From: Thermodesulfobacteriota bacterium
GTDB lineage: Bacteria > Desulfobacterota_D > UBA1144 > Nemesobacterales > UBA2774
Direction of reading: 5' to 3'
DNA: 64,000 nucleotides
NCBI GenBank assembly: GCA_963422265.1
Contig: OY729416.1
Location: 960,001-1,024,000 of the forward strand
The translations under genes were made by a program, and so were the position numbers. The number at the start of each line of letters is the position of its first letter. Within the stretch, counting starts at the first letter, position 1. Shown one piece after another: positions 1,991-39,276 of this stretch. The notes under the pieces were generated by a model that worked only from the letters and a program-made list of their open reading frames with translations, made no database searches and was not told where the DNA came from.

Positions 1991-3605
1991 GACGACCACG
2001 AAATCGGACTCCACCCCCGTAACACTGCCGGCCACCGCACGGATGCGAAATCTATATATAGTGCCGTTGGTCAGACCCGTCACCGTGTGTGTGATCGGGT
2101 CCTTCCCACTCCCCGATATGTCAACCCAGTTGCCAGGGTTAGGCTCGGTATTGCCAGTCCACTGCTTATACTGATACTTGGTGATGACGGGATTGTTCGG
2201 ATCACTCCAGCTTAACGTTACTTCACCATCACCGGTACTGGCACTGAGGTCGGGCTTGCCTGGGACCACCATGGGGATCACTACTGCGGTGTAAGGGGAC
2301 TGCGACCCCGTAACACTGCCGGCCACCGCCCGAATACGGAAACTATACTCAACGCCGTTGGTCAGACCCGTCACCCCGTAGCGAACAGTGTCCTTATCAC
2401 TGGGATTAATGTCCACCCAATTACCCCAACTGCCTCGCTCGCCACCGCCCGTCCATTGCCTGATCTGATATTTGGTGATGTCGGCGTTATTTGGATTATT
2501 CCAGCTTAACGCTATTTCACCGTCACCTGCCACTACCTTGGGGCGGGTGGGACTTCTTGGAGGCGCGGCCACCGGCGTCGCCCGGACAACATTCGACTCC
2601 GTTACTACAACGCCGTTGGTCAACCCGCGAATACGGAAGCTATACGTCACGCTGTTGGTCAGACCCGTCACCCTGTATTCAATGAGCGTGGTTGATATGG
2701 TGGCTGAAATATCGCGCCAATCCCCCGTCTCGCTACTGCCCGTCCATTGCCTGATCTGGTACTTGGTGATGGTGGTATCCTTCTGATCAGACAGATTCGG
2801 ATCACGCCAGATCAGCTCGATTTGTTTGTACCGGGCCTGCGCACTGATTTTAGTAGGCGCTGCCTGTACCGGCGGTGCCGCTACCAGCTTGACAACGGTG
2901 ACAGTGGACGCCGGCCCATAGGCGGCGGGCCCATGGGCATAGTCGCCAGCCACGGCCCGAATGCGGAAGTAGTATTTGACGCCGGTGGGTAAACCGGTCA
3001 CTACGTGGCTGATGGTGTCTTTGTCGCTGCCCGGGATGTCGCCCCAGTCATTCCAGTCGCCGGTCTTGCTCCCGTCTTGTGCAGTCCGTACGTCGCGTCG
3101 CCGGATCTGGTATTTGATGATGTCAGTATTGTTGGGATTACTCCAGTTTAACGTTATTTGTCTGTCGCCGGGTACCGGTGGTACCACGGTGACGTTAGGC
3201 CTTGCGGTAGGCGCGGTCGGAATGGGCCCGGGGGTCACGGTAATAACGTCGGACGGCGCTCCTGTAACATTGCCGGCGGCTACCGCACGAATGCGGAAGT
3301 GATACTTAACACCGTCACGCAGACCCCGCACCGAGACGCTCTGCGCGCTAATAGTACCTGCAAAGTTAAACCAGCCAAACGGCTCGGTATCGCCATCAAT
3401 CCATTGCTTATACTGATACTTGGTGATGGCGGCATTATCCGGATTATCCCAGCGGAACTTTACCTGACGGATGCTCGCCACCGCCTTGAGACCAGTGAGC
3501 TTAGTGGGGGGGGGGGGCTACCTGCGCCTGAACAACGGCGGGCAGCAACAGAAACAGAGCGACAGCAACACCAAGTAAAGAGAGAGAAAGAAGACGTTGC
3601 ATCAT
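1..3605 (-). CDS. Large secreted repeat protein/adhesin (signal peptide, ~5 FN3-like domains, tandem 95-aa Ig-like repeats); 3' end outside window; frameshifted at C12 tract as assembled
   Basis: Manual translation from ATG 3605 gives MMQRLLSLSLLGVAVALFLLLPAVVQA|QVAPPPH*. Removing one C from the tract at 3506-3517 joins it to TKLTGLKAVASIRQVKFRWDNPDNAAITKYQYKQW (FN3-like). The repeats AVTITGTATQGQTLTADTS..FSYQWKRGGTDISGATSSTY.LTQADVG are in that same frame. The track lists no closed minus ORF here, consistent with a frame running off the window. Confidence 0.85.
3506..3517 (-). repeat. C12 homopolymer (coding strand) just after the signal peptide
   Basis: 12 G on the + strand; C11 or C14 restores the frame. 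Confidence 0.9.
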
Positions 3606-28640: not shown

Positions 28641-31418
28641 TTATATTAACCGCTCAAGCACGTCCCTTATCTCTCCTGGATGCCTTACCACGTCGAACCT
28701 CCACTGTCCAAAACCGCCGTGAGCACTTACGGCTTTGACCCACTCTTTCATATATTCATGCTTTGCATCGTCCGCGTTGGTCTGCTGCCCTTTTGTTTCA
28801 AGCACAAGAAAGTCGCCATTTGCCAGTCGGATGAGAAAATCGGGACGGTATCTTCTGACCACGCCATTGTAAATATAAAGAACGTCAAAACCTAGATGAT
28901 CGTTTTTGACCCATGCAGCAACCGCTTCATTGTTATCTAGCTGAAAAGAGTCGGAAGATTCCCACGGGCTGTCAAATACGCAATAGTTGATATGGCTTTT
29001 TTTCGTCCATTCGCAAGGTTTTCCCGTTCCCCAAGGACGCATATCGCCAGTAGATCTAATAGGGTGGCCAGTATCAAAAATAATTTCCATTTTCTCAGTG
29101 TTGTTAAACTCTATAGCACGCCAAAAATGATTGATAACTTTCGACATGTTTAACTTTATTACAAGCTGTCTCCTCCTTTTATCTCTATTGAAAAGCTCAG
29201 GAGATATTTGAATTCTATCTGAATCTATATACTGCTCTGTGAGGCGTACAAGTTCCGCCATCAGCACGGACGGAGAAGCCTGCCAAGTAGGTTTCATCTT
29301 TTGCCAGATGGATTGAGCCGCTTTGAAAATAGCCGTCTGTTTGCGCAGCCTCTTCATCAACTCTTCAACGTCTATGTCCTTGATTTTGGAAACGTCTGGA
29401 TTATTATCAATTGTTGGAGCAATTTCTACTATTTGCACAGTTTTTGAGGCATTAAGTTCTAACGACCTGACCTTACTCCAATCGACGGAAAGCTCCGGCT
29501 TGTATGTCCTATCTATTCTTATGACGTTGGGCCATTTGATGAAGAATTCTTTTTTCTCTTCAAAGGGTTTGACAACTATTTTAGGCGACGGAGGTGGTGC
29601 ATCTACACCGCCCTCCTCGTGAGGAAGAAAACTGAACGGCACGCCGAATACGTTGACGTATTCCGCATCAAATAGTCCAGTATTTTCGTTAATTTCATAA
29701 GAGGCGCGTCTGAGACCGCGCCCGACTACCTGTTCACAGAGAAGTTGACTTGTGAAGGCACGCAATCCCATGATTTGTGTAACCGTTCGCGCGTCCCAAC
29801 CTTCGGACAACATCCCAACGGAGATAACGTTCTGTATCTTTTCTCCCAGCTCACCGAGTTGTCCAACCGTATTGACTTGCTTTCTGAGTATCTCGGACTG
29901 CTCTTTCTGCGTAATTTTTTGTCCTTTGGTCCCTTCACTATCCGCTGACTTCACCGCTTGTTGTAGCTCCGGTTCATTTTGCTCAGCCTGTTTCAATACT
30001 TTTGAGTCTATGTGCAAAATGCCTTCGGGGGCGCACAGCGAGTCAACCATTATGTCCTTGTTGTCAAACGCGTGCTTGATCCTAGCCGCCGTTTCAGTGC
30101 GGTTGGCAACCGTAATTATCACTGGAGGGGTTTCACGCCCGTCCCAATTCTCTTTTGTTCTTTGCCAGTCCGAACCCAACAAAGCGTAGGCGTTTATTAC
30201 AAGATCGGGTAACGGCTCGTGAGTTTCCGCCCTGCGGTTTAGATCGTCTTTGACTTCGGGGTCGTTGTAAATGTGGTAGAGGCGGGATTTATAGGTTGTG
30301 GCGTCCGGCGCGGCGTCATCGCGCACAACGATGCGCGGCGTTTTGACGAGACCTGATTCAATGGCGTCATTTAGTCCAAAGTCGCTGACGGTCCATCCAA
30401 ACAACGCTTCTTCTGACGTTTTCCTTCCACTCGGCACAAAAGGGGTGGCGGAAAAATCAAAACAGTTCAAAATCCCCCGCGTTTTATGTATGCGGTCAAG
30501 CCCGCCAATCCACTTCGTAGCTTCTTCTATTTCCTCTTTTTTAACGCCTTTTATCTTTGACCCGGCGGGAACGCGCCAAGCATGATGCGCCTCGTCATTG
30601 ATAACAACCAGCTTATGGGAGGTTGCCATATCCCCTAACACTTCACGGACATATGCTTCATCACTTTTTGCACCTCGTTTATCAACACCTTTCTTCTTTC
30701 TTATTCTTTCCTCAGTTTCCCAATTTAGGATGTGCCAGTTTCGTATAAGAATCTTTGCCTGTAAGAGCTTCTCTCTCAAAGACAGCGGGACAACGCCAAA
30801 TTCGTCGTAGTAGCTTGTTTTTGAAGGGATAAGGACGGAAAGGCGTTCCCTGACCGTGAGATTGGGGGCTACAATAAAAATATTCTGAGAAAAACGCCCG
30901 TCCCTTGGGTAGGTTGCGCGGTTAATTGCCTGCCACACAATCAGCATCGCCATAACAACGGTTTTCCCTGTTCCAGTGGCGAGTTTGCAGCACAAGCGGC
31001 GAAACTCTCCTCCGTCAGTTGGAATATCCATACCCGCCTTTTCGGAATCAGGAGATTCAATAAGCCATATCAGCGTTTCAATCGCCTCTATCTGGCAGAA
31101 GAAAAACGGATAACCCCTCTGCTCGTTATCTTTCCAGTGTTCAAGCAGTGTTTTTGTAATGCCGGTAATTCCCGGGTAGCCCGCGTCGCGCCAAGCGTCA
31201 ACGCGCTGGCGTATTTGATTTACAAGCGGCAGTTCAACAAAGACTCCCCAATCCTGATAGGGATTCACCGTAGGATCGGCAATCATATACCCAGCCTTGC
31301 GACGCCCTTGTTTAAGCTCAAGAGGCCTTCCTTCCTCAACAAATTGCCAGTGTTTGGAAGGTTCAGTATATGGGGAGTTGATGATGAGGGTGGAATGGTG
31401 GTAGTTGTCTTTCTTCAT
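28641..31418 (-). CDS. res: Type III restriction endonuclease Res subunit (helicase plus PD-(D/E)xK nuclease)
   Basis: FFCQIEAIET, LATGTGKT, INDEAHH, SATP, MLSEGWD, EQVVGRGLR, YRPDFL...LETKG. Confidence 0.93.
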   Translation of the reverse strand: MKKDNYHHSTLIINSPYTEPSKHWQFVEEGRPLELKQGRRKAGYMIADPTVNPYQDWGVFVELPLVNQIRQRVDAWRDAGYPGITGITKTLLEHWKDNEQRGYPFFFCQIEAIETLIWLIESPDSEKAGMDIPTDGGEFRRLCCKLATGTGKTVVMAMLIVWQAINRATYPRDGRFSQNIFIVAPNLTVRERLSVLIPSKTSYYDEFGVVPLSLREKLLQAKILIRNWHILNWETEERIRKKKGVDKRGAKSDEAYVREVLGDMATSHKLVVINDEAHHAWRVPAGSKIKGVKKEEIEEATKWIGGLDRIHKTRGILNCFDFSATPFVPSGRKTSEEALFGWTVSDFGLNDAIESGLVKTPRIVVRDDAAPDATTYKSRLYHIYNDPEVKDDLNRRAETHEPLPDLVINAYALLGSDWQRTKENWDGRETPPVIITVANRTETAARIKHAFDNKDIMVDSLCAPEGILHIDSKVLKQAEQNEPELQQAVKSADSEGTKGQKITQKEQSEILRKQVNTVGQLGELGEKIQNVISVGMLSEGWDARTVTQIMGLRAFTSQLLCEQVVGRGLRRASYEINENTGLFDAEYVNVFGVPFSFLPHEEGGVDAPPPSPKIVVKPFEEKKEFFIKWPNVIRIDRTYKPELSVDWSKVRSLELNASKTVQIVEIAPTIDNNPDVSKIKDIDVEELMKRLRKQTAIFKAAQSIWQKMKPTWQASPSVLMAELVRLTEQYIDSDRIQISPELFNRDKRRRQLVIKLNMSKVINHFWRAIEFNNTEKMEIIFDTGHPIRSTGDMRPWGTGKPCEWTKKSHINYCVFDSPWESSDSFQLDNNEAVAAWVKNDHLGFDVLYIYNGVVRRYRPDFLIRLANGDFLVLETKGQQTNADDAKHEYMKEWVKAVSAHGGFGQWRFDVVRHPGEIRDVLERLI

Positions 31419-31424
31419 CAGAAT

Positions 31425-31898
31425 TTACGCTCGGCCTTTTACTTCACTCCACGACAACGACTTATCACATTTAACGTGTGTAATTCTCGCTTTTTTGCCA
31501 TTATAACGTATTTTAATCTTCTGAAATTCCCTGCTGGACTTTCCGTGTCCGAGACTTTGAGAGACTAATACCGGATAACACATAAATTGTTTGTTGTGGT
31601 GCTTCTTAAAAAAGTCAATCCCCCCATTCAACTGTTTTTTCACTTCACTCGGCTTCACCCACTTACTTTTAAACTCTACAGGAAGAAGAAATATAGAAGC
31701 GCCCTCCTTAACTACAATTATGTAGTCGCACCTCTTACTTTTAATTTGAGCTAGTTCTTGTTCGGTAACGCGATCAATATCCAGAATAACCTTTTCGCTT
31801 GGAAAGGCATCCAGATTGAGCTTGCATTCCTGTTTTTTGCAAGAGTTGCAGGTGCATTCACCAAATTTGTTTTTCAGGTAGGAGACAATGGAACTCAT
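31425..31898 (-). CDS. Hypothetical protein, possible PD-(D/E)xK nuclease fold, partner of the AAA ATPase
   Basis: RCDYII.......LPVEFKS...VKKQL; ATGA overlap with the ATPase. Confidence 0.6.
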   Translation of the reverse strand: MSSIVSYLKNKFGECTCNSCKKQECKLNLDAFPSEKVILDIDRVTEQELAQIKSKRCDYIIVVKEGASIFLLPVEFKSKWVKPSEVKKQLNGGIDFFKKHHNKQFMCYPVLVSQSLGHGKSSREFQKIKIRYNGKKARITHVKCDKSLSWSEVKGRA

Positions 31899-33355
31899 CC
31901 TTGATGTTCTATATTATCAAGTTTCTCCAAAATCCCTATGCTTTCGTTGTATAAATCTGAAGAGACCTCGTCGTGGTCCTCAGAGAATAGACCGTTTTCC
32001 TTGTCAAAATGCAGTCTCTCAACAATCGTTCCTTCTTCTCGTTGATTAAATACGTAGGCACTAACTTCTTCCTCTTCCAATTTCGTTAATTTGCTACCGT
32101 GTTTGGTTGCCGTCAATTTTGAAGAGCGAACATGGTTCGCAAGTTGATCCAGAAAATAGTCGCTGTGCGTTGTTACCATAACCCGAACGCCTGCACGGAC
32201 TAAACTAACAACGGTTCTCGCGATGCCTCTTTGGGCTTCAGGATGTAGGTGCGCTTCTGGTTCTTCAATAATCAGCAAATCCCCTTTCTTTACTTTGTAT
32301 CTAAGAAAGAGAACAACGGGAGCTAGTTCTGAAACCATCGATGAGGAATGCACCAATGGAACTTTAAGTGTTTTCTGCTTATATGAAAATTGCGGATATT
32401 GGGTCGCTTCTGAAACTTCTGTTTTAATGGAACCATGAAGTATTTTTTTTTCTATCTCGTCCGCCACTGCTGCCACATCGGGATCAAGAATGTGCGAAGT
32501 ATCTATATGTATAATTTCTTCTAAAAAGTCAGATACAATCCCCCTCAAAGGAGGAGAAGTAAGTTGTGATGGGAGAGCAGTTTGTTTTATAAGCGTTCTG
32601 GTTATAAACTGTTGGGTTTCCACAAGTCCGGTCCTTCCCGCTGGTAGGCAGAAAGGTTTTGCCTGAGTGATAGAACTAAAAATCTCTTCTGATATCTGTT
32701 CAAGGAGCTGACATAGTTTTCTTTCAATTTCTCTTTCGGAACGCATGTCTCTCGGTAAATCTCTCAACCTTATTTCAGAGCTACTCAGATAGTTCTTGTT
32801 CACATGGGGAGTTAAGTCATTTGAATTAAGCGTAAGCGTAAAACCTTGTTCATCGTTTTCCATCTCAAGGCTAAACTTATCACTCAAGAAATTAAGATTG
32901 AATTTATCACTCAAGAGACTTTTCCCGTGATAAATGCCCATGCAACGAGAAATCTCTATGTGGAACTTATAATTTACTGCCATTTTTATCCCTTCCTTGG
33001 TCCAGCTTTTAATCCCTTCAGGCAAATCCGACAATTTGACGCTTTTTATATCTCCTTTTAACAACTTTATTAGCCAATTATCTATATTTTCGGGTGCAAT
33101 CCCAACTTCTGTTTCTATACTTATAGTTTCTACTAATCCTTCCCCTATTGGACTACAACCACATATAAATAAGGGGAGAAAATTGAGATTCTCAAAAGAA
33201 TGAAACAAAGAATAAATAAGCACTGCAAGATACGACTTGCCCGTATTGCTTGGACCAATAAAAACCGTCAGCGGACAAAGCTCAATATCTATTGCCTCCT
33301 TAATGGGTCCGTAATTCCTAACAGAAATTTTCACGTTGCTTTTTGGCGTTTCCAT
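31895..33355 (-). CDS. ABC-type AAA ATPase (AAA_15/AAA_21-like)
   Basis: NYGPIK, LTVFIGPSNTGKS, PAGRTG, SSSMVSELAP, IIEEPEAHLHP, TTHSDY. Confidence 0.92.
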   Translation of the reverse strand: METPKSNVKISVRNYGPIKEAIDIELCPLTVFIGPSNTGKSYLAVLIYSLFHSFENLNFLPLFICGCSPIGEGLVETISIETEVGIAPENIDNWLIKLLKGDIKSVKLSDLPEGIKSWTKEGIKMAVNYKFHIEISRCMGIYHGKSLLSDKFNLNFLSDKFSLEMENDEQGFTLTLNSNDLTPHVNKNYLSSSEIRLRDLPRDMRSEREIERKLCQLLEQISEEIFSSITQAKPFCLPAGRTGLVETQQFITRTLIKQTALPSQLTSPPLRGIVSDFLEEIIHIDTSHILDPDVAAVADEIEKKILHGSIKTEVSEATQYPQFSYKQKTLKVPLVHSSSMVSELAPVVLFLRYKVKKGDLLIIEEPEAHLHPEAQRGIARTVVSLVRAGVRVMVTTHSDYFLDQLANHVRSSKLTATKHGSKLTKLEEEEVSAYVFNQREEGTIVERLHFDKENGLFSEDHDEVSSDLYNESIGILEKLDNIEHQG

Positions 33356-33398
33356 AATTCTATCTCTCCGACTACGTTACCTCAAACATACTCAAACT

Positions 33399-34121
33399 CT
33401 AGTGCATAGTAACGTATCTTTCAATGTTTTTTGCAATAGGATCCCTTGACGCAATGGAACTGACTTGAGACCCTCCAATATTTGCATCCATTAACCTGCT
33501 CAAGTGTCTAGGGGGAAGTTCTTCCTGGTCATTGAAAATAAGCAATATTGGTGTTTTACTATTATGAAGCAAAAGATGTTGTAAGGTTATAGTGACCAAT
33601 TTCGCTTTGTCCGCACCTAGAATGCCAAATAGAAACAGGAGTGTTTTCTCTTCGTTCTGTAATGAATAGTCAATAACGTAATTATCGGCGTTTTCTAAAT
33701 CCGGAACTACATAATCTTTTTCTAATTGGAGAATAGGGTGCTTACTGATAATTTGATTCAGTAATTCTTCCAAATCTTTGTAAAAAGTTACTTCGGGACG
33801 ATCTCTGTTGAGGTAGGACAAATCATAAACTTGGCTCAATGCTTGTCCTAAACGAAATATACCATCAGAAATTCTATCAACAGGGATTTCTACATAGAAG
33901 TTTCCATCTTCTTCTTGAATTTCATTTTCTCTTAGTATTTGCTCCATTAATTTTCCTTTATTGCCTTTGAAATACTTACTCACATCTGGAGTGTCATAGC
34001 TTAACCTCATAACAGTATTTGCTTCATCGCTAATGCGAATTTGTCCCTCGTCAACTTCCTTCAAATATATAGAGTAATGATCACCGTCCGGAGAAGAGAA
34101 CGGGGTCGAAATCATCAACAT
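33399..34121 (-). CDS. DUF1828-like protein (frame open upstream to ~34200; start possibly damaged)
   Basis: ISTPF..PDGD.YSIYL......IRISD.A.T.M.L; FY.D. Confidence 0.7.
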   Translation of the reverse strand: MLMISTPFSSPDGDHYSIYLKEVDEGQIRISDEANTVMRLSYDTPDVSKYFKGNKGKLMEQILRENEIQEEDGNFYVEIPVDRISDGIFRLGQALSQVYDLSYLNRDRPEVTFYKDLEELLNQIISKHPILQLEKDYVVPDLENADNYVIDYSLQNEEKTLLFLFGILGADKAKLVTITLQHLLLHNSKTPILLIFNDQEELPPRHLSRLMDANIGGSQVSSIASRDPIAKNIERYVTMH

Positions 34122-34139
34122 GCCATTTTTGCGCTCTAT

Positions 34140-34681
34140 CAGTTGAATATCGGTGCAGAGTTGTTGACGTAGTTCTTTCTGTAAGCTATCCTTGCTGATC
34201 TAAGTATCGCCCCGCAAAGATCGCTTTGCGACCTGGTGTGCCATTTTATATTGTAGTCTTCAAATAGACACTTGAGTGCACCATTTACATCGGAATATCA
34301 GTCAGTAACCTGTGTGTTTTCATGTTCGGGACTTCTATCCCTTCTGTTTATGCTTTCAGAAGTTGCATGATGGATATGACATTCATAATGTGCTATTTTG
34401 TTTTCGTGATTGGGTCCGTTGTATCGAGACAGCCTTATGTTTTCCTTGTCCAGTATCATCACAATGCCGCATGAGAAGTTTTCTGGGTCTCTTTCGTTGA
34501 GCCGAGCAAAAACTTTCAGTAACAACTCCAAGAAAACTTCTTGCAAGAAATTTGCTTCCTTAAATTCAACATCAAAACTCCATTGCTTGCTCTGCTTTCG
34601 AATTTTAGGCGGCGTCTGTTTTATGTTTATGATTTTAGGAGTATCCTTTATCGAACCTAAAATTTTTTCTGACATCTCCAC
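34140..34681 (-). pseudogene. His-rich hypothetical partner of the DUF1828-like gene, with probable premature stop at 34298-34300
   Basis: RYNG..H......HIH.AT motif; after TGA the same frame continues YSDVNGALKCLFEDYNIKW. Confidence 0.55.
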
Positions 34682-34683
34682 TA

Positions 34684-37600
34684 TTACACCTCCACCACCT
34701 TCAAACTCTCAATACCCCTATCATCTACTATTTTAACCGCGACTCTGCGGTTTTTGCCAAGCTCAAAAGGTAACGAGACTGTTCCCCTGTATGCCTCTAT
34801 CAATTCTTGGTCTATCTCGGCTTTCAGGTTTTTGGCAAGCCTTGTCCATCCACCTTTACTGTCCGCCATTGGAAAGAATACCTGACGTGGATAAAGACAT
34901 CTGCCATCATAGTCGGTGTCTAACATCCAGACTGCTATATTCTTTTCATCGCCGGATTCAAGTTTGCCGGTCTTGGTGTTGAAGTAGTCAAAGCCCCGGA
35001 TAGTGATTTGTGAATAGTTCTTAGTTGTCAGTTTTGAGTTTTGAGTCGGTAGTTTTAAGCCTTGAGCGATTTCTTCAAGCTGTAGAGTAACTTTGCTATC
35101 TCTTCGCAATTGCTCAGCAATTCCTTTAAGCTGGCTTCTCCCAGAAATCCCAAATTCCGAGAGATTATCAAAAAAGTCTCTAACTCGGCTAACGAACCCT
35201 GTGCTATCGAGAGAAATTGCAGAAATTCCTTTTTGCTTTGTCTCGCTTGTCCCTCCGCTATGTTTGCTGGGATAGAGGTTCCAGCCCTTCTCACTTGCGA
35301 GGTAATGCCATACTTCTCTTCCTTGGGAAAGGATGAGGTAGAGTAGTAAATCTTGTTGACTAAGCTGATTGACTTTCGCCAAACTATCAAGTCCCGATAA
35401 TTCCTTGAATACGTCATAACTTGCAATCTCCATATCACTAGAAACTAAAAACTCATAACTGCAGACTGCCACATCCGGTTGCCCGACCAGCCAGAAACTT
35501 TCATTGCTCGCGCGTTTTTTCTTCAGGTCATCGGTTTGCATATCGGCGTTCATTTGGACTTTGAGTAAAGTCATGCCAGTTTTTTCAGGCGACAACTCAT
35601 CAATGTCTTTTGCCGCTTCTGGATCAAATTGAAAGGCGGCAAAGATCAACATGCTCGGGCGCGGCATCAAAGTGCGCGCCTCTTCCCAGGCAAGCTCTAC
35701 CTGCCTCTGTTCAAGAGGGGCGTGTTCAGGACCGAATGAAATCACCGCGCGGTGCGGATTATACGCCGTTGCGGCTTCCTTGAATTCGTCCGATCCTGAA
35801 TCATCAGGTTTTGTTTCAGCTTCTGCGTGTAGCCAACGACAGGGGATGGGTTCGACGCGAGAGAAGGAAATATGCTGCCCGTTTTTGCCACGAATGCCGG
35901 TTTTCAGCAGTTCATCGCGCCATTCACTTTGGCGCAGGGTCTCGCCGGAGCGAGATAGAGAAGCGTCAGCTACTTCAACAGAAAGTCTTTCTCCCTCACC
36001 CTTAATCCCTCTCCCAGAAGGAGAGGGAAGCACATCGGAGATGGGTTGAACGGTTGGGGATGGAACAGCTTCTACGGTGAAAGGTCCGGTTACTCGGGCG
36101 CGTTTGTTGTCTTTCAGCGGCTGATCGTAAAGAGTTTCTGTTGCGGGAGGCTCATCATTGGCTATGGATTTCAAAGTAACGTGCGGAACTTTTTTATATT
36201 TAAAGCCACTGCCGACACCCTCATCAGGATACGCCAATTTGTAATAATCAAACGTAGCAGTCATCAACCTTTGCTTAGCGAGTGTAAGAGCCACGCGCGA
36301 GGTATCGCAGGTGATCCAGCGTCTGCCCCATTGCTCGGCAACGTAAGCAGTCGTGCCACTGCCACAGGTTGGGTCAAACACCAGATCGCCAGGGTCGGTG
36401 GTCATGAGGATGCAGCGTTCTATTACTTTAACTGCTGTTTGAACTACAAATATTTTTGTAGATTCGCCCCCTAACTTACTCCACATATTTGACAAAGGTG
36501 TTACTGGATAATCATCTAAGAAACGAACAAAACAAGGAAAAGATCCGCTTACTTCTATTCGGTTATGTTGCGTTAACCTGCTTAGCCCTTCAATGGTTGT
36601 TGTCCAATGAGTCCCTTTTCTGGGGTAATACTTTTTCCCTTCAAAACGAAAAACCTCTTCCTCTTTTCCAGATCCTTGACTACATATATCACTTAGCCTA
36701 TATAATCTTGAGCTTTCTGGGATAATACTAGGATTTTTTATTTCTTCCTTCGAGCATTTTCTACGTATGCCATCTGAATTTTCCAGTCGGTTGTACTGGT
36801 TAATACCAGCACCATGAGTTTTAGGCATAAACAATTGACGATATTTTCTTTTTGCGGACTTAATATCTTTTGAGTACCAAAGCAGAAAATCATAAATATT
36901 TCCGACAAAACTGGAAGCATCTTTTGCTGCTTGTGTAGTATATGTTATCTGTGCTACAAAATTCCTTACCCCAAACACCTCATCCATAATCTCCCGAATA
37001 TGATGCACGTTCTCGTCTGAAATCTGCACAAACACACTGCCGCTTTCCGTAAGCAATTCCCTTGCCAGCAGCAGACGGTCGCGCATATAGGAAAGGTAGG
37101 AGTGAATCCCCAGTTCCCAGGTATCACGGAATGCCTTGATAGTTTCAGGCTCTGTGGTCAAGTCTTCATCTTTACCGTCTTTGACATCACGCTTATTGAC
37201 AAATGGCTGAAAATTGCTGCCGTATTTGATGCCGTAGGGCGGGTCCATGTAAATGCACTGAACCCCCTGACTACCCCCCCCCCCCCCCCCCCCCCAATAT
37301 TTTCCTTTTGCAGCAGCGAGTTCATCACCAGTAGGGAGTCGCCCGCAACCAGTCGGTTTGTCCAGTTGTGGGAGTGTTGGTAAAACTCAATCTCCTGCCG
37401 AAGTGGAATTTCACGTTCTTGCTCAAAAAGAGGCAGTTGATTGCCGTCACCGTTTCCGTTGCGTTTTCTAACCGCTTCCACAATAGTGCGCGGGTCTATG
37501 CGGTCGTGGACGTGAAGCGATACGTTTGGCACTTCAAATGAAGTATGCTCGGCTTTCCCCGCCCATTGGAGTTGCGGGTCTAAGTGCGGATCGTAGGTAT

Positions 37601-37736
37601 AGGCCTTCTTGGCGCCCGTGTCGGGGTCAGTGTTTGGCGTTACAAGCCCTACCGGCGGGTTATTGACGCGCTGTTTGTCTCGATGTTCATAGGATTCAAT
37701 ATGTTGGCGTTTTGCCTTGGGCTTTTTCCGTGACAT
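34684..37736 (-). CDS. mod: Type III R-M DNA methyltransferase Mod, frameshifted at G22 tract as assembled; contains two in-frame insertions
   Basis: ORF 37158-37736 (YDPHLDPQLQWAGK, NRLVAGDSLLVMNSLL) joins ORF 34684-37248 (VQCIYMDPPYG, DPTCGSGTT, VAVKIVDDRGIE) if the tract is G20 or G23. Confidence 0.92.
35001..35470 (-). mobile_element. Intervening-sequence-like insert: four-helix-bundle gene between complementary 7-nt periodic arms, inside mod
   Basis: Sits between mod FWLVGQPDV and RGFDYFN; xAGTyyy heptads at 35001-35056 and ACT heptads at 35436-35468 on the + strand. Confidence 0.75.
35055..35417 (-). CDS. Four helix bundle protein (23S rRNA IVS protein family, Avd-related), nested in the +1 frame of mod
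   Basis: YRDLIVWRKS..L...IY.....FPKEEKYG.TSQ.RRA..SIPANIAEG..R.S.KEF..FL.IA.GSL.ELET; GGAG RBS upstream of ATG 35417. Confidence 0.92.
   Translation of the reverse strand: MTYSRNYRDLIVWRKSISLVNKIYYSTSSFPKEEKYGITSQVRRAGTSIPANIAEGQARQSKKEFLQFLSIAQGSLAELETFLIISRNLGFLGEASLKELLSNCEEIAKLLYSLKKSLKA
35993..36030. repeat. REP-like palindromic element translated in frame in mod (LPSPSGRGIKGEG)
   Basis: ccctcacccttaa-tccctctcc-cagaa-ggagaggga has a 9-bp perfect stem; related copies at ~37848 and ~39168. Confidence 0.8.
37274..37295 (-). repeat. G22 homopolymer (coding strand) in mod
   Basis: 22 C on the + strand, about 9 codons before DPPY. Confidence 0.92.
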
Positions 37737-37758
37737 TAAGCTCCTCCTGCTAATCCTT
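37670..37758 (-). repeat. 89-bp direct repeat, copy 1 (mod RBS plus first 22 codons)
   Basis: Identical by eye to 39006-39094. Confidence 0.92.
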
Positions 37759-38073: not shown

Positions 38074-38664
38074 TTATTTACTAAATAGTTCTACTGAAAC
38101 CATCTCGCTTGACAATATAATTATACCCTTGGTTGAAGTTCTCACACGCTCGAATCCACCATCATCATTTAGCTTCCATGCTTCTTCTAAATACAACTGC
38201 TCATCGGCAGGGGCACTTGATGAAAAAGATTTTGAATCGTAGCTTCCCGCTATTTTCGTTCCATTCTTAAGCGTAACAATAATCCAATACGGTTCTCTTT
38301 TAGAGAATACATAATCCCAGGGTTTTTGGGTTGGATGTGGGACGCCTACGTTTTGAAAGAATCGGCTAGTTCTTATAGTTTTCCATAGAAAAACCCAAAT
38401 TACCGGCGCGATAAAAAGAACGAAAAGGCAAGTCAAGTAATATATAAATCCTTGTGAGCTTCTCAAATTATATGAGTTAAAGAAAACGACCAGCGGAGAC
38501 AGCAAAGCGTAGTTTATACAACTGTATGTTATAGCCTCAACAATTTGTTTTGATGACTCTGTTTTTTCAGATGGAAAAAACAACTCGTAGGCTCTCAAGC
38601 TTACGAAGCCTGGAATAACGAATGCTATAAAAAGTATTAGTTTATCTTGTTCCCATATATCCAT
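38074..38664 (-). CDS. Membrane protein, DUF6338-like
   Basis: FIAFVIPGF, PWDYVF, WIIVTLKNG..IAG, EQLYLEEAW; GGAGG RBS. Confidence 0.75.
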   Translation of the reverse strand: MDIWEQDKLILFIAFVIPGFVSLRAYELFFPSEKTESSKQIVEAITYSCINYALLSPLVVFFNSYNLRSSQGFIYYLTCLFVLFIAPVIWVFLWKTIRTSRFFQNVGVPHPTQKPWDYVFSKREPYWIIVTLKNGTKIAGSYDSKSFSSSAPADEQLYLEEAWKLNDDGGFERVRTSTKGIIILSSEMVSVELFSK

Positions 38665-38843: not shown

Positions 38844-39072
38844 TTAATTGATTCCCCATAATTGCACGGCTATACCCGCATGTTTTCTTTGTCTTGATTC
38901 AATTACATTGTGCTCCCCATTCGAAATACTCACCTACGTTTTTGTTAATAGCGTAATTGGTGTGAGACAAGATCTCTTTTTTCTTCTCAAATGGCTGTTG
39001 ACCTAGCTGTTTGTCTCGATGTTCATAGGATTCAATATGTTGGCGTTTTGCCTTGGGCTTTTTCCGTGACAT
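38844..39072 (-). pseudogene. Chimeric relic: duplicated mod 5' end fused to a frameshifted fragment resembling a DUF1524/GmrSD C-terminus
   Basis: MSRKKPKAKRQHIESYEHRDKQ-LGQQPFEKKKEILSHTNYAINKNVGEYFEW, then in the shifted frame VIESRQRKHAGIAVQLWGIN*. Confidence 0.55.
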
Positions 39073-39094
39073 TAAGCTCCTCCTGCTAATCCTT
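39006..39094 (-). repeat. 89-bp direct repeat, copy 2
   Basis: Identical by eye to 37670-37758. Confidence 0.92.
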
Positions 39095-39167: not shown

Positions 39168-39276
39168 CCCTCACCCTTAATCCTTCTCCCAGAGGGAGAA
39201 AGAAAACGATCAGCGGAGACAACAACGCGTAGTTTATGCAATTGTATGTTATAGTCTCAACAATTTGTTTTGATGA
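39168..39276. repeat. REP-like palindrome copy followed by a 76-bp diverged copy of 38481-38556
   Basis: ccctcacccttaatccttctcccagagggagaa, then 39201-39276 with 6 mismatches to an internal part of the DUF6338-like gene. Confidence 0.85.

Follow-up and report, generated by a model that had tools for sequence, protein, structure and literature searches.

The contig OY729416.1 of a Thermodesulfobacteriota bacterium (assembly GCA_963422265.1) raises the question of how a complete gene can lie within another gene, on the same strand, and leave its host readable. In the 64,000-nucleotide (nt) stretch analyzed here (positions 960,001 to 1,024,000 of the contig, referred to as the window), the type III DNA methyltransferase gene mod encloses a gene of the four-helix-bundle protein family known from intervening sequences (IVSs) of 23S rRNA, here called IVP. 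Our analysis suggests that an IVS-type element probably replaced the tip of a β-hairpin in the C-terminal region of Mod and that it has been kept there and translated through, an arrangement of dual coding. The features concerned are listed below by their positions in the window.

34684..37248, minus strand: main mod open reading frame (ORF), type III DNA methyltransferase, host of the insert, 854 amino acids (aa) (ORF list, Pfam, PADLOC)
35008..35463, minus strand: insert, covering host residues 596-747 when read in the mod frame; 152 stop-free codons (gap against the insert-free homologue G019)
35055..35417, minus strand: IVP gene, four-helix-bundle 23S rRNA-IVS protein family, 120 aa plus stop at 35055-35057 (Pfam, NCBIfam, PDB match, wobble pattern)
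35428..35431, minus strand: GGAG, Shine-Dalgarno (SD)-like motif 10 nt before the IVP ATG (sequence reading)
35431..35471, minus strand: 5′ arm, complementary to the 3′ arm, host frame ..AVCSYEFLVSS.. (inverted repeats I1, I2, and I13; closing stem of the minimum-free-energy [MFE] fold)
35001..35055, minus strand: 3′ arm, host frame ..NSKLTTKNYSQ.. (inverted repeats, lag-7 periodicity)

An IVP gene and its arms inside mod

Before the choice of a start, the IVP ORF spans 35055..35438 on the minus strand, and the ATG at 35417 yields a protein of 120 aa. Since 37248 − 35417 = 1831 = 3 × 610 + 1, the gene lies in the +1 frame of mod. Its product matched PF05635 (E value of 8e-41, 139 bits, cutoff of 33.8), TIGR02436 (E value of 1.6e-39, 134.5 bits, cutoff of 24), and the subfamily model NF008911 (148.6 bits, cutoff of 137), as well as, by sequence match only, the solved proteins 2gsc_A (E value of 2.3e-23) and 2rld_A. 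The motif RxxxSxxxNxxE is present in the translation as RRAGTSIPANIAE; the accessible text of PMC3936711 gives GxxRxxxSxxxNxxE as a motif of the IVP family and places IVP genes in cas loci. No nuclease or recombinase domain was recognized in IVP by Pfam, PADLOC, or NCBIfam, and no PADLOC model matched the protein. The 1.78-Mb genome contains a single PF05635 match. The ORF list, Pfam, and NCBIfam thus agree with the first-pass annotation, which had described, from the letters alone, a full 120-aa four-helix-bundle coding sequence with a GGAG motif nested in the +1 frame of mod.

The host gene is likewise recognizable. The main mod ORF matched N6_N4_Mtase in Pfam (E value of 4.6e-30) and MTase_III in PADLOC (E value of 1.1e-134), and its frame contains zero stops along the entire 854 codons, insert included. 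After the insert, this frame resumes with GFDYFN...VAVKIVDDRGIE, just as the annotation had read it. The closest insert-free homologue among related genomes (G019, at L003:886-3582; 57-67% identity) aligned to Mod residues 1-595 and 748-854, and the 152 intervening residues correspond to 13 in G019. Together with six database proteins of partial coverage, seven insert-free alleles were found, each with a 13-residue β-hairpin loop at the site, and the alignment to these homologues set the junctions at the tip of that hairpin. The loops are homologous in sequence (E[QY]I[RS]KG[ED]xxG[KQ][WI][QS] or KKIDEGDNKGKYV), and therefore the empty state does not represent independent deletions.

Occupied alleles nevertheless prevail. 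When Mod residues 440-854 were compared with the database, 114 of the 120 best-listed relatives covered the whole query including the insert (one of them being the window's own protein), while six covered 43-54%. Among the 51 listed relatives that were aligned, all 45 full-coverage proteins had 146-166 residues at the site and all six partial ones had 13. The statement in the annotation that related Mods carry only a short loop here held for the seven empty alleles but not for most of the close relatives listed, and the presence of the segment in 114 of them indicates that the arrangement is old and widespread and did not arise as an accident of this locus. The insert site is conserved: in all 38 Mod loci of the survey described below, it follows G[QE]PD[VI]xV and precedes QVxVxG[FV]D. 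Gene callers translate through the insert in the host frame, and the host-frame peptide used as a query found 29 representative proteins. This peptide matched no NCBIfam model, and Pfam recognized only N6_N4_Mtase in the 854-aa protein, with no Hint or splicing domain. An Rfam search found no intron, ribozyme, or rRNA in the insert, the sole hit being a chance-level microRNA match outside it.

Other material is also found in frame in two further proteins of this Mod family (P0068, residues 627-732; P0130, residues 737-793). It follows the methylase domain, precedes the C-terminal region, and is either a DUF559/MTES_1575 endonuclease domain or part of an IS200-like Y1 transposase. This stretch of Mod seems to tolerate several kinds of insert.

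In the window, the arms on either side of the IVP gene pair into a stem of ~30-45 bp, by which the MFE fold is closed; within the 3′ arm, a 7-nt unit is repeated in tandem (plus strand AGTTTTG, 35030-35046). Across 75 elements, the autocorrelation of the arms was 0.478 at lag 7, compared with 0.23-0.30 at other lags. The heptamer unit varies by lineage while the complementarity between the two arms is kept (GTGGTTA/TAACCAC, GGGAGAC/GTCTCCC, CAGATGG/CCATCTG, and CCGTTTT/AAAACGG; AGTTTTT/CAAAACT in the window). The arms thus covary: for 9 of 13 arm types, the own partner gave the best fold, with a mean of −43.7 kcal/mol for own and −26.9 kcal/mol for foreign partners. The RNA fold of the whole insert was no better than that of shuffled sequences (z = −0.91). 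Complementary, lineage-specific heptamer arrays also bracket free-standing IVP genes that lie between operon genes (L054, L071, L080, L098, L103, and others).

We modeled Mod residues 483-854, a construct of 372 residues, by AlphaFold2 (AF2) with 51 relatives (mean predicted local distance difference test score [pLDDT] of 76.9, predicted template-modeling score [pTM] of 0.65). In construct numbering, the model contains a long two-stranded β ribbon, in which a host strand continues into the 5′-arm peptide (105-121) and the 3′-arm peptide into a host strand (259-275), and helices at 129-170 and 207-248 separated by a low-confidence stretch at ~171-206. Much of the insert had a pLDDT of 82-92. 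The predicted structure fits an insertion at the hairpin tip with arms that lengthen the hairpin. The confidence of the helical part may be borrowed, however, as the host-frame columns carry the covariation of the IVP fold through the shared nucleotides.

Nested relatives and coding constraint in both frames

The IVP family was surveyed in contigs of one genome per species. The best 80 loci of 488 confirmed relatives hold 82 IVP copies, which we divided according to the state of the surrounding frame.

38 copies: in Mod homologues, open frame extending 300 nt or more to either side
10 copies: within long ORFs of other kinds (300 nt or more to either side in 8)
12 copies: frame open through the match, short flank
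22 copies: stops in that frame

The 12 short-flank copies were mostly Mods frameshifted elsewhere or lay at contig ends. The host frame was IVP+2 in every nested case, and in 48 of the 82 copies, with recognizable hosts, the host protein frame was stop-free and the insert length divisible by three; host frames of nested family members are open far beyond chance. The 38 Mod hosts belong to 16 phyla and to two deep Mod clades (A and B). Among the hosts other than Mod were a Ser/Thr kinase (L065), in which the insert lies between HRDLKPANILL and KISDFG (HRDLKPxN and DFG), two hybrid histidine kinases in which the insert divides HATPase_c (L086 and L093), four MmeI-type restriction-modification (RM) enzymes (L067, L088, L096, and L104), a protein with immunoglobulin-like domains that exceeds 2100 aa (L102), an ABC ATPase (L082), a protein without assignment (L032), and a DUF1156 DNA methylase from a genome that belongs to the same order as the window (L130). 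The IVP copies in the kinase, the histidine kinases, and the MmeI-type enzymes form one IVP clade (98*). Nested relatives showed an SD-like motif at −18..−5 in 31 of 55 cases and an ATG at the homologous start in 43 of 55.

Free copies mostly lie between co-directional genes. Five planctomycete genomes yielded 23 PF05635 matches, five of them nested (all known beforehand), and the divergent paralogues were free-standing. On plasmids, relatives of <60% identity occurred in 42 records, and the two inspected were stand-alone genes between others, not nested. In the closest relative (L025:2359-2431; 71% identity for IVP and 89% for the Mod N terminus), eight consecutive A residues between the 5′ arm and the IVP SD motif interrupt the host frame; a sequencing error, decay, or a slippery site may be the reason. 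A scrambled Mod gene of Bacteroidota contains two IVP copies 1.1 kb apart (L076:1869-2192 and 3001-3309).

For the host frame to acquire a stop, an IVP codon must end in T and be followed by one starting with AA, AG, or GA. The window IVP has 36 such risk positions and T at none of them, while 20 of its 83 other codons end in T. Among 2000 synonymous-codon shuffles of this gene, the host frame stayed open in a fraction of 0.0015, in keeping with the low chance (~1e-3) that the annotation had claimed for the open mod frame, here a 152-codon insert. The same avoidance was found across the stop-free copies, with T before AA, AG, or GA codons at 0 of 1560 positions, compared with 960 of 5091 elsewhere. 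Their +1 frame contained a mean of 8.5 stops, and a median of 0.05 of their synonymous shuffles remained open. In 120 genomes of the window's phylum, we found 29 IVP-family loci, of which only the window and L130 had a stop-free +2 frame; the other 27 had 4-19 stops. Ordinary paralogues thus do contain stops, and it is one IVP subfamily, rather than the family at large, that is characterized by the stop-free frame. Free copies of this subfamily had T at 96 of 868 risk positions, compared with 562 of 2359 positions elsewhere, and a mean of 4.0 stops in +2 versus 8.7 in +1. This bias in the free copies fits a putative descent from nested ancestors.

Selection on IVP itself was evident from 57 pairs of closely related nested copies (IVP identity of 80% or more), in which substitutions at the three IVP codon positions numbered 616/553/1854 and the host-frame identity was 43-92% where that of IVP was 80-97%. 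The excess at the wobble position demonstrates that IVP is a real gene under purifying selection and that the primary coding frame of the insert is not that of the host. The latter is not entirely free in Mods, either. At 28 conserved four-fold IVP codons, Mod-nested copies had a third-base entropy of 1.28 bits, compared with 1.68 ± 0.01 in within-sequence shuffles, and pairs between Mod clades A and B shared the third base at 0.442 of four-fold non-risk sites, compared with 0.324 expected, although shared ancestry may add to both figures. In pairs of equal IVP identity that involved free copies or other hosts, the third-base excess was only 0.02-0.05. The hydrophobicity of the host-frame peptide was 0.27-0.40 in Mod hosts and 0.19-0.26 in other hosts.

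History of the insert and competing explanations

The flanks and the insert of the window Mod tell different histories. By its flanks, the window belongs to a clade of eight (98*) together with six empty alleles and P0049, and its best flank match is an empty allele (82%). Its insert, however, is only 40% like that of P0049, its sister by flanks, and 68-72% like the inserts of P0030, P0033, P0035, and P0055, whose flanks are 64-70% identical. The insert tree grouped the window with P0030/P0033/P0035/P0055/P0062 (99*) and rejected window plus P0049 (delta log likelihood [lnL] of 98, p value of the approximately unbiased test [p-AU] of 0.00013), whereas the flank tree grouped the window with P0049 (99*) and rejected the opposing grouping (delta lnL of 125, p-AU of 0.0006); the groups were picked after the similarity table had been seen, which weakens the p values but not the size of the conflict. 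The conflict between the two trees indicates that the element moved between alleles. A homing-type pattern was thus found, with occupied and empty alleles at one site and, for groups chosen post hoc, an element history that differs from that of the host.

According to the mechanism that we propose, the element consists of two complementary tandem-heptamer arms, an SD motif with ATG, and the four-helix-bundle IVP gene. Ribosomes on the mod message would read the insert in IVP+2, so that Mod would gain ~139 extra residues, and IVP would be translated separately, in the +1 frame, from a start of its own. As predicted by the structure model, the arm peptides would lengthen the host hairpin as a β ribbon, and the remainder would sit on top. 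The element would enter, or be exchanged between, Mod alleles at one site in a homing-like manner, and a sister lineage would have entered unrelated genes at comparable hairpin tips. The sequences demonstrate the anatomy of the element, the constancy of its site, the avoidance of stops, purifying selection on IVP, covariation of the arms, and discord between insert and flanks; we infer from them read-through translation, separate translation of IVP, and spread by gene conversion or recombination. Read-through is favored by the stop-free, in-register host frame in dozens of diverged copies and in unrelated hosts, as excision or bypass would not need such a frame.

In the first-pass annotation, the insert had been interpreted as a minimal mobile intervening element sparing its host, whether through dual coding in a loop that tolerates it or through removal from the RNA or ribosomal bypass. 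The survey, the junctions, and an insert history unlike that of the flanks support such an element. Of the sparing routes, dual coding gains from the maintained stop-free frame and the two others lose; the loop is indeed a β-hairpin tip, but the host-frame peptide in Mods may be more than a passive loop. A bolder proposal, which we put forward tentatively and consider rather doubtful, is that of a previously unrecognized class of intervening elements beside introns, inteins, and bypass elements. Such elements would be hairpin-armed, invade β-hairpin tips, undergo neither splicing nor bypass, and be translated through in a built-in frame free of stops; a pentameric four-helix-bundle IVP, encoded in the other frame, would bind the heptamer hairpin and promote copying into empty alleles, and rRNA IVSs would be the same element in RNA hairpin tips.

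Several observations weigh against an IVS-type element that is mobile and translated through. In the window genome itself, mod is frameshifted by a run of 22 G residues, and read-through there depends on this tract and may be off or phase variable; several relatives also have broken Mods. Each of the five planctomycete genomes has one nested copy and the window genome has one copy, and these single copies give no sign of active transposition. No nuclease, recombinase, or adjoining reverse transcriptase (RT) was evident, and the genome search found no Y1 transposase. The stem of the arms showed no strand asymmetry (sense 40 versus antisense 35, p = 0.40), so that the stem may act as RNA or as a DNA hairpin. 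Besides the post hoc choice of the tested groups, general mosaic recombination of RM genes could produce incongruent trees even if the element itself were inactive. In the IVP tree, most copies from Mod clade B fall into one clade, and the IVP trees largely track the two Mod clades, indicating that much of the spread was coinheritance with Mod and that exchange was occasional. Finally, the data on synonymous sites suggest that the host-frame peptide in Mod hosts is itself under some selection, and this excess, together with the AF2 confidence, fits a coadapted domain better than a purely selfish passenger.

These points lead to the alternative of a domesticated overlapping gene: after a single ancient entry, the element would be immobile, IVP would serve as an accessory or regulator of the methylase or of defense, the host-frame peptide would be a real Mod domain, ordinary selection on the host would maintain both frames, and spread would occur only with the RM system. 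We consider this unlikely, yet it deserves to be taken seriously. The tracking of Mod clades A and B by the IVP trees and the one copy per genome speak for it, as do the preference for DNA-methylase hosts (type III Mod, MmeI-type, and DUF1156 methylase), the excess conservation of IVP-synonymous sites among Mod-nested copies, the confident helical AF2 model, the higher hydrophobicity of the Mod-nested peptides (0.27-0.40, compared with 0.19-0.26 in other hosts), and the IVP genes reported from cas operons in the accessible text of PMC3936711. The methylase bias and the host-frame constraint in Mods, in particular, keep it alive. On the other hand, empty alleles at 78-82% flank identity mean that Mod does not need the insert, the histories of insert and flanks disagree (the inserts of the window and P0049 being 40% alike), the hosts in the planctomycete lineage are unrelated proteins, and the AF2 signal was possibly inherited from IVP covariation through the shared nucleotides.

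The remaining explanations are weaker than domestication. The arms might pair in the mRNA and the insert be cut out, for example by RNase III, with rejoining of the halves, or ribosomes might hop over it. The stem of ~30-45 bp that closes the MFE fold would suit this, and rRNA IVSs of the same gene family are excised by RNase III according to the accessible text of PMC4990558. In the same text, however, no ligation follows the excision; furthermore, a stop-free frame and a length divisible by three would be superfluous, yet both occur in 48 of 82 copies, with recognizable hosts, and the absence of Rfam introns and ribozymes in the insert, the fold z of only −0.91, and the lack of a sense-strand bias of the stem make sparing at the RNA level very improbable. 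That mod is a pseudogene in which a random insertion left the frame open by coincidence could draw on the 22-G frameshift, the 89-nt duplication at the mod start, and the extra genes between mod and res. We find this scarcely credible, given the shuffle probability of 0.0015, the same open frame in 38 intact Mods and 10 other hosts, and a second strain (~96% identical) that retains the region without insertions or deletions. Least of all do we believe that Mod simply has an ordinary domain here and that the ORF in the IVP frame is spurious: most listed relatives carry the segment and AF2 folds it, but the IVP frame matches a curated family with an E value of 8e-41 and shows the 616/553/1854 wobble pattern, the host-frame peptide has no NCBIfam match, and empty alleles exist. 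Dual coding by a translated-through element at a hairpin tip thus remains the reading that we favor.

Related elements and the surrounding locus

Several known systems resemble the mod element in part. The rRNA IVSs (23S and 16S; Leptospira, Coxiella, Brucella, and bacteria of the candidate phyla radiation) share the protein family and the complementary borders around an ORF. In the accessible text of PMC4990558, these borders form a stem-loop around the S23p/IVP ORF that replaces a helix-tip tetraloop, and IVSs and their proteins are described as familiar from the early 1990s onward, with neither a function nor a route of spreading assigned to them; IVP genes in rRNA IVSs also appear in the available part of bioRxiv 10.1101/2024.02.27.582315. 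The insert described here lies in a protein-coding gene and not at an rRNA helix tip, its second frame is stop-free, and its arms are tandem heptamers. It is apparently read through, as judged from its sequence, whereas the rRNA IVSs are excised by RNase III, and its IVP is under purifying selection, whereas the same account of PMC4990558, in the text available, has the Coxiella IVS ORF decaying.

Rickettsia palindromic elements (RPEs) and other transposable elements of the miniature inverted-repeat type (MITEs) inserted into genes are likewise palindromic, lie in frame in ORFs, and are translated with the host protein, as far as the accessible text of PMC10969869 describes them. Terminal inverted repeats, in-frame insertion, and an open host frame are all present in the mod element; many copies and the lack of a gene are not, as RPEs are ~150 bp, multicopy, and geneless and the element here is single copy per genome with a conserved gene in the other frame. 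Inteins and homing-endonuclease genes share with it the single copy, the one conserved site, presence or absence in close alleles, and the incongruent history, but the insert has no Hint or endonuclease domain recognizable by Pfam or NCBIfam and encodes its own protein in a different frame. Same-strand overprinted genes also yield two proteins from one DNA stretch in different frames; here, in contrast, the overlap came about by insertion of a preexisting gene and recurs in unrelated hosts.

IVP proteins are relatives of Avd of the diversity-generating retroelements, according to the accessible part of PMC10053308. The likeness of the window IVP to Avd lies in the related four-helix-bundle fold and in weak matches below the cutoff (NF033474, 23.7 bits, cutoff of 80; PF22296 [bAvd], 33 bits, cutoff of 40). 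Unlike Avd, IVP has no RT or template repeat/variable repeat pair adjoining it. The only RT match in the genome (G000:C1:1038358-1038822) lies in a 507-aa open frame ~43 kb from IVP and ~14 kb past the end of the window.

The tandem heptamers of cyanobacteria, Beggiatoaceae, and Bacteroidetes (TAACTGA; short tandemly repeated repetitive sequences [STRRs]) have 7-nt units, are mostly intergenic, and are patchy across phyla; in the accessible text of PMC4679880, they are direct repeats without a linked gene, and S23 or four-helix proteins go unmentioned there, whereas two complementary arrays bracket IVP here. The cyanobacterial and Beggiatoaceae arrays may partly be arms or relics of such elements. 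STRR arrays also lie inside cyanobacterial RNase P RNA. Our literature search found no description of PF05635 genes nested in coding genes or flanked by heptamers, although supplements and subscription journals were beyond its reach and an earlier description is possible.

If the interpretation is correct, IVS-type elements also live in protein-coding genes of at least 16 phyla, where the stop-free second frame and the hairpin-extending arms make them harmless, and the nested IVP genes constitute a natural, conserved example of bacterial dual coding over a long stretch of the same strand. They would form a new annotation category, as gene callers show the host protein and hide the nested gene. 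Many type III Mods would, judging from their genes, carry a passenger of ~140 residues and coexpress a second protein, heptamer repeat arrays would be tied to a specific gene family, and the occupied and empty Mod alleles would offer a tractable system for the role of IVP.

The mod locus of the window includes three further features of the type III system.

37158..37736, minus strand: 192-aa ORF for the N-terminal portion of mod, in a frame other than that of the main ORF (resembles the N terminus of G019 Mod, KDKERVNNPPVGLV...)
37274-37295, minus strand: run of 22 G (mod strand) separating the N-terminal and main mod ORFs (sequence reading)
28641..31418, minus strand: res, restriction subunit of the same system, 925 aa (Pfam ResIII, E value of 4.3e-9; PADLOC REase_III, E value of 1.2e-10)

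The hallmarks of a type III Mod are present, namely, the N6_N4 methylase domain with MDPPYG (DPPY), the match to a type III model, and a nearby res gene, in a frame broken by the 22-G run. This run sits between the N-terminal ORF and the DPPY motif, and 21 or 24 G residues would give a single frame. Relatives lack a G tract at this position (consensus ...EKEGLxGKVQM...), and the tract may reflect a phase-variable mod or a homopolymer assembly error. Four ORFs occupy the interval between mod and res (31425-34681): a 127-aa ORF without a family, a DUF1828 protein resembling PADLOC PDC-M24B, an AAA_15 ATPase like PD-T4-4_A/PDC-M47A/AriA, and a 157-aa ORF with a weak likeness to PDC-M47B. By these resemblances, they are candidate defense genes inside the RM operon. 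A res gene located 500-1800 nt downstream, not adjoining, was also seen in five Mod clade A relatives, and with two query sequences, res was found within 400 nt 3′ of the nested Mod in 5 of 38 loci, the clade B partner being probably divergent.

Four sets of DNA contigs were compared with the window. A contig of a second strain (X6), ~96% identical, spans 34692-36448 with 71 differences and no gaps and keeps the insert region without insertions or deletions. Sequences that join 34986 to 35469 and skip 482 nt were present in X2 and X5; their sides are only 41-47 nt long with 85% likeness, they may stem from an insert-free relative, and we did not count them as evidence. A perfect 89-nt direct repeat (37670-37758 and 39006-39094, spacing of 1336 nt) doubles the mod start and its upstream region and encloses a DUF6338 gene (38074-38664), part of which is doubled by a second repeat (38479-38556 and 39199-39276, 92%). 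In contigs of other strains or samples, 481-535 unrelated letters stand in place of the mod segment 36448-36939, a pattern to be expected if a target-recognition region had been swapped.

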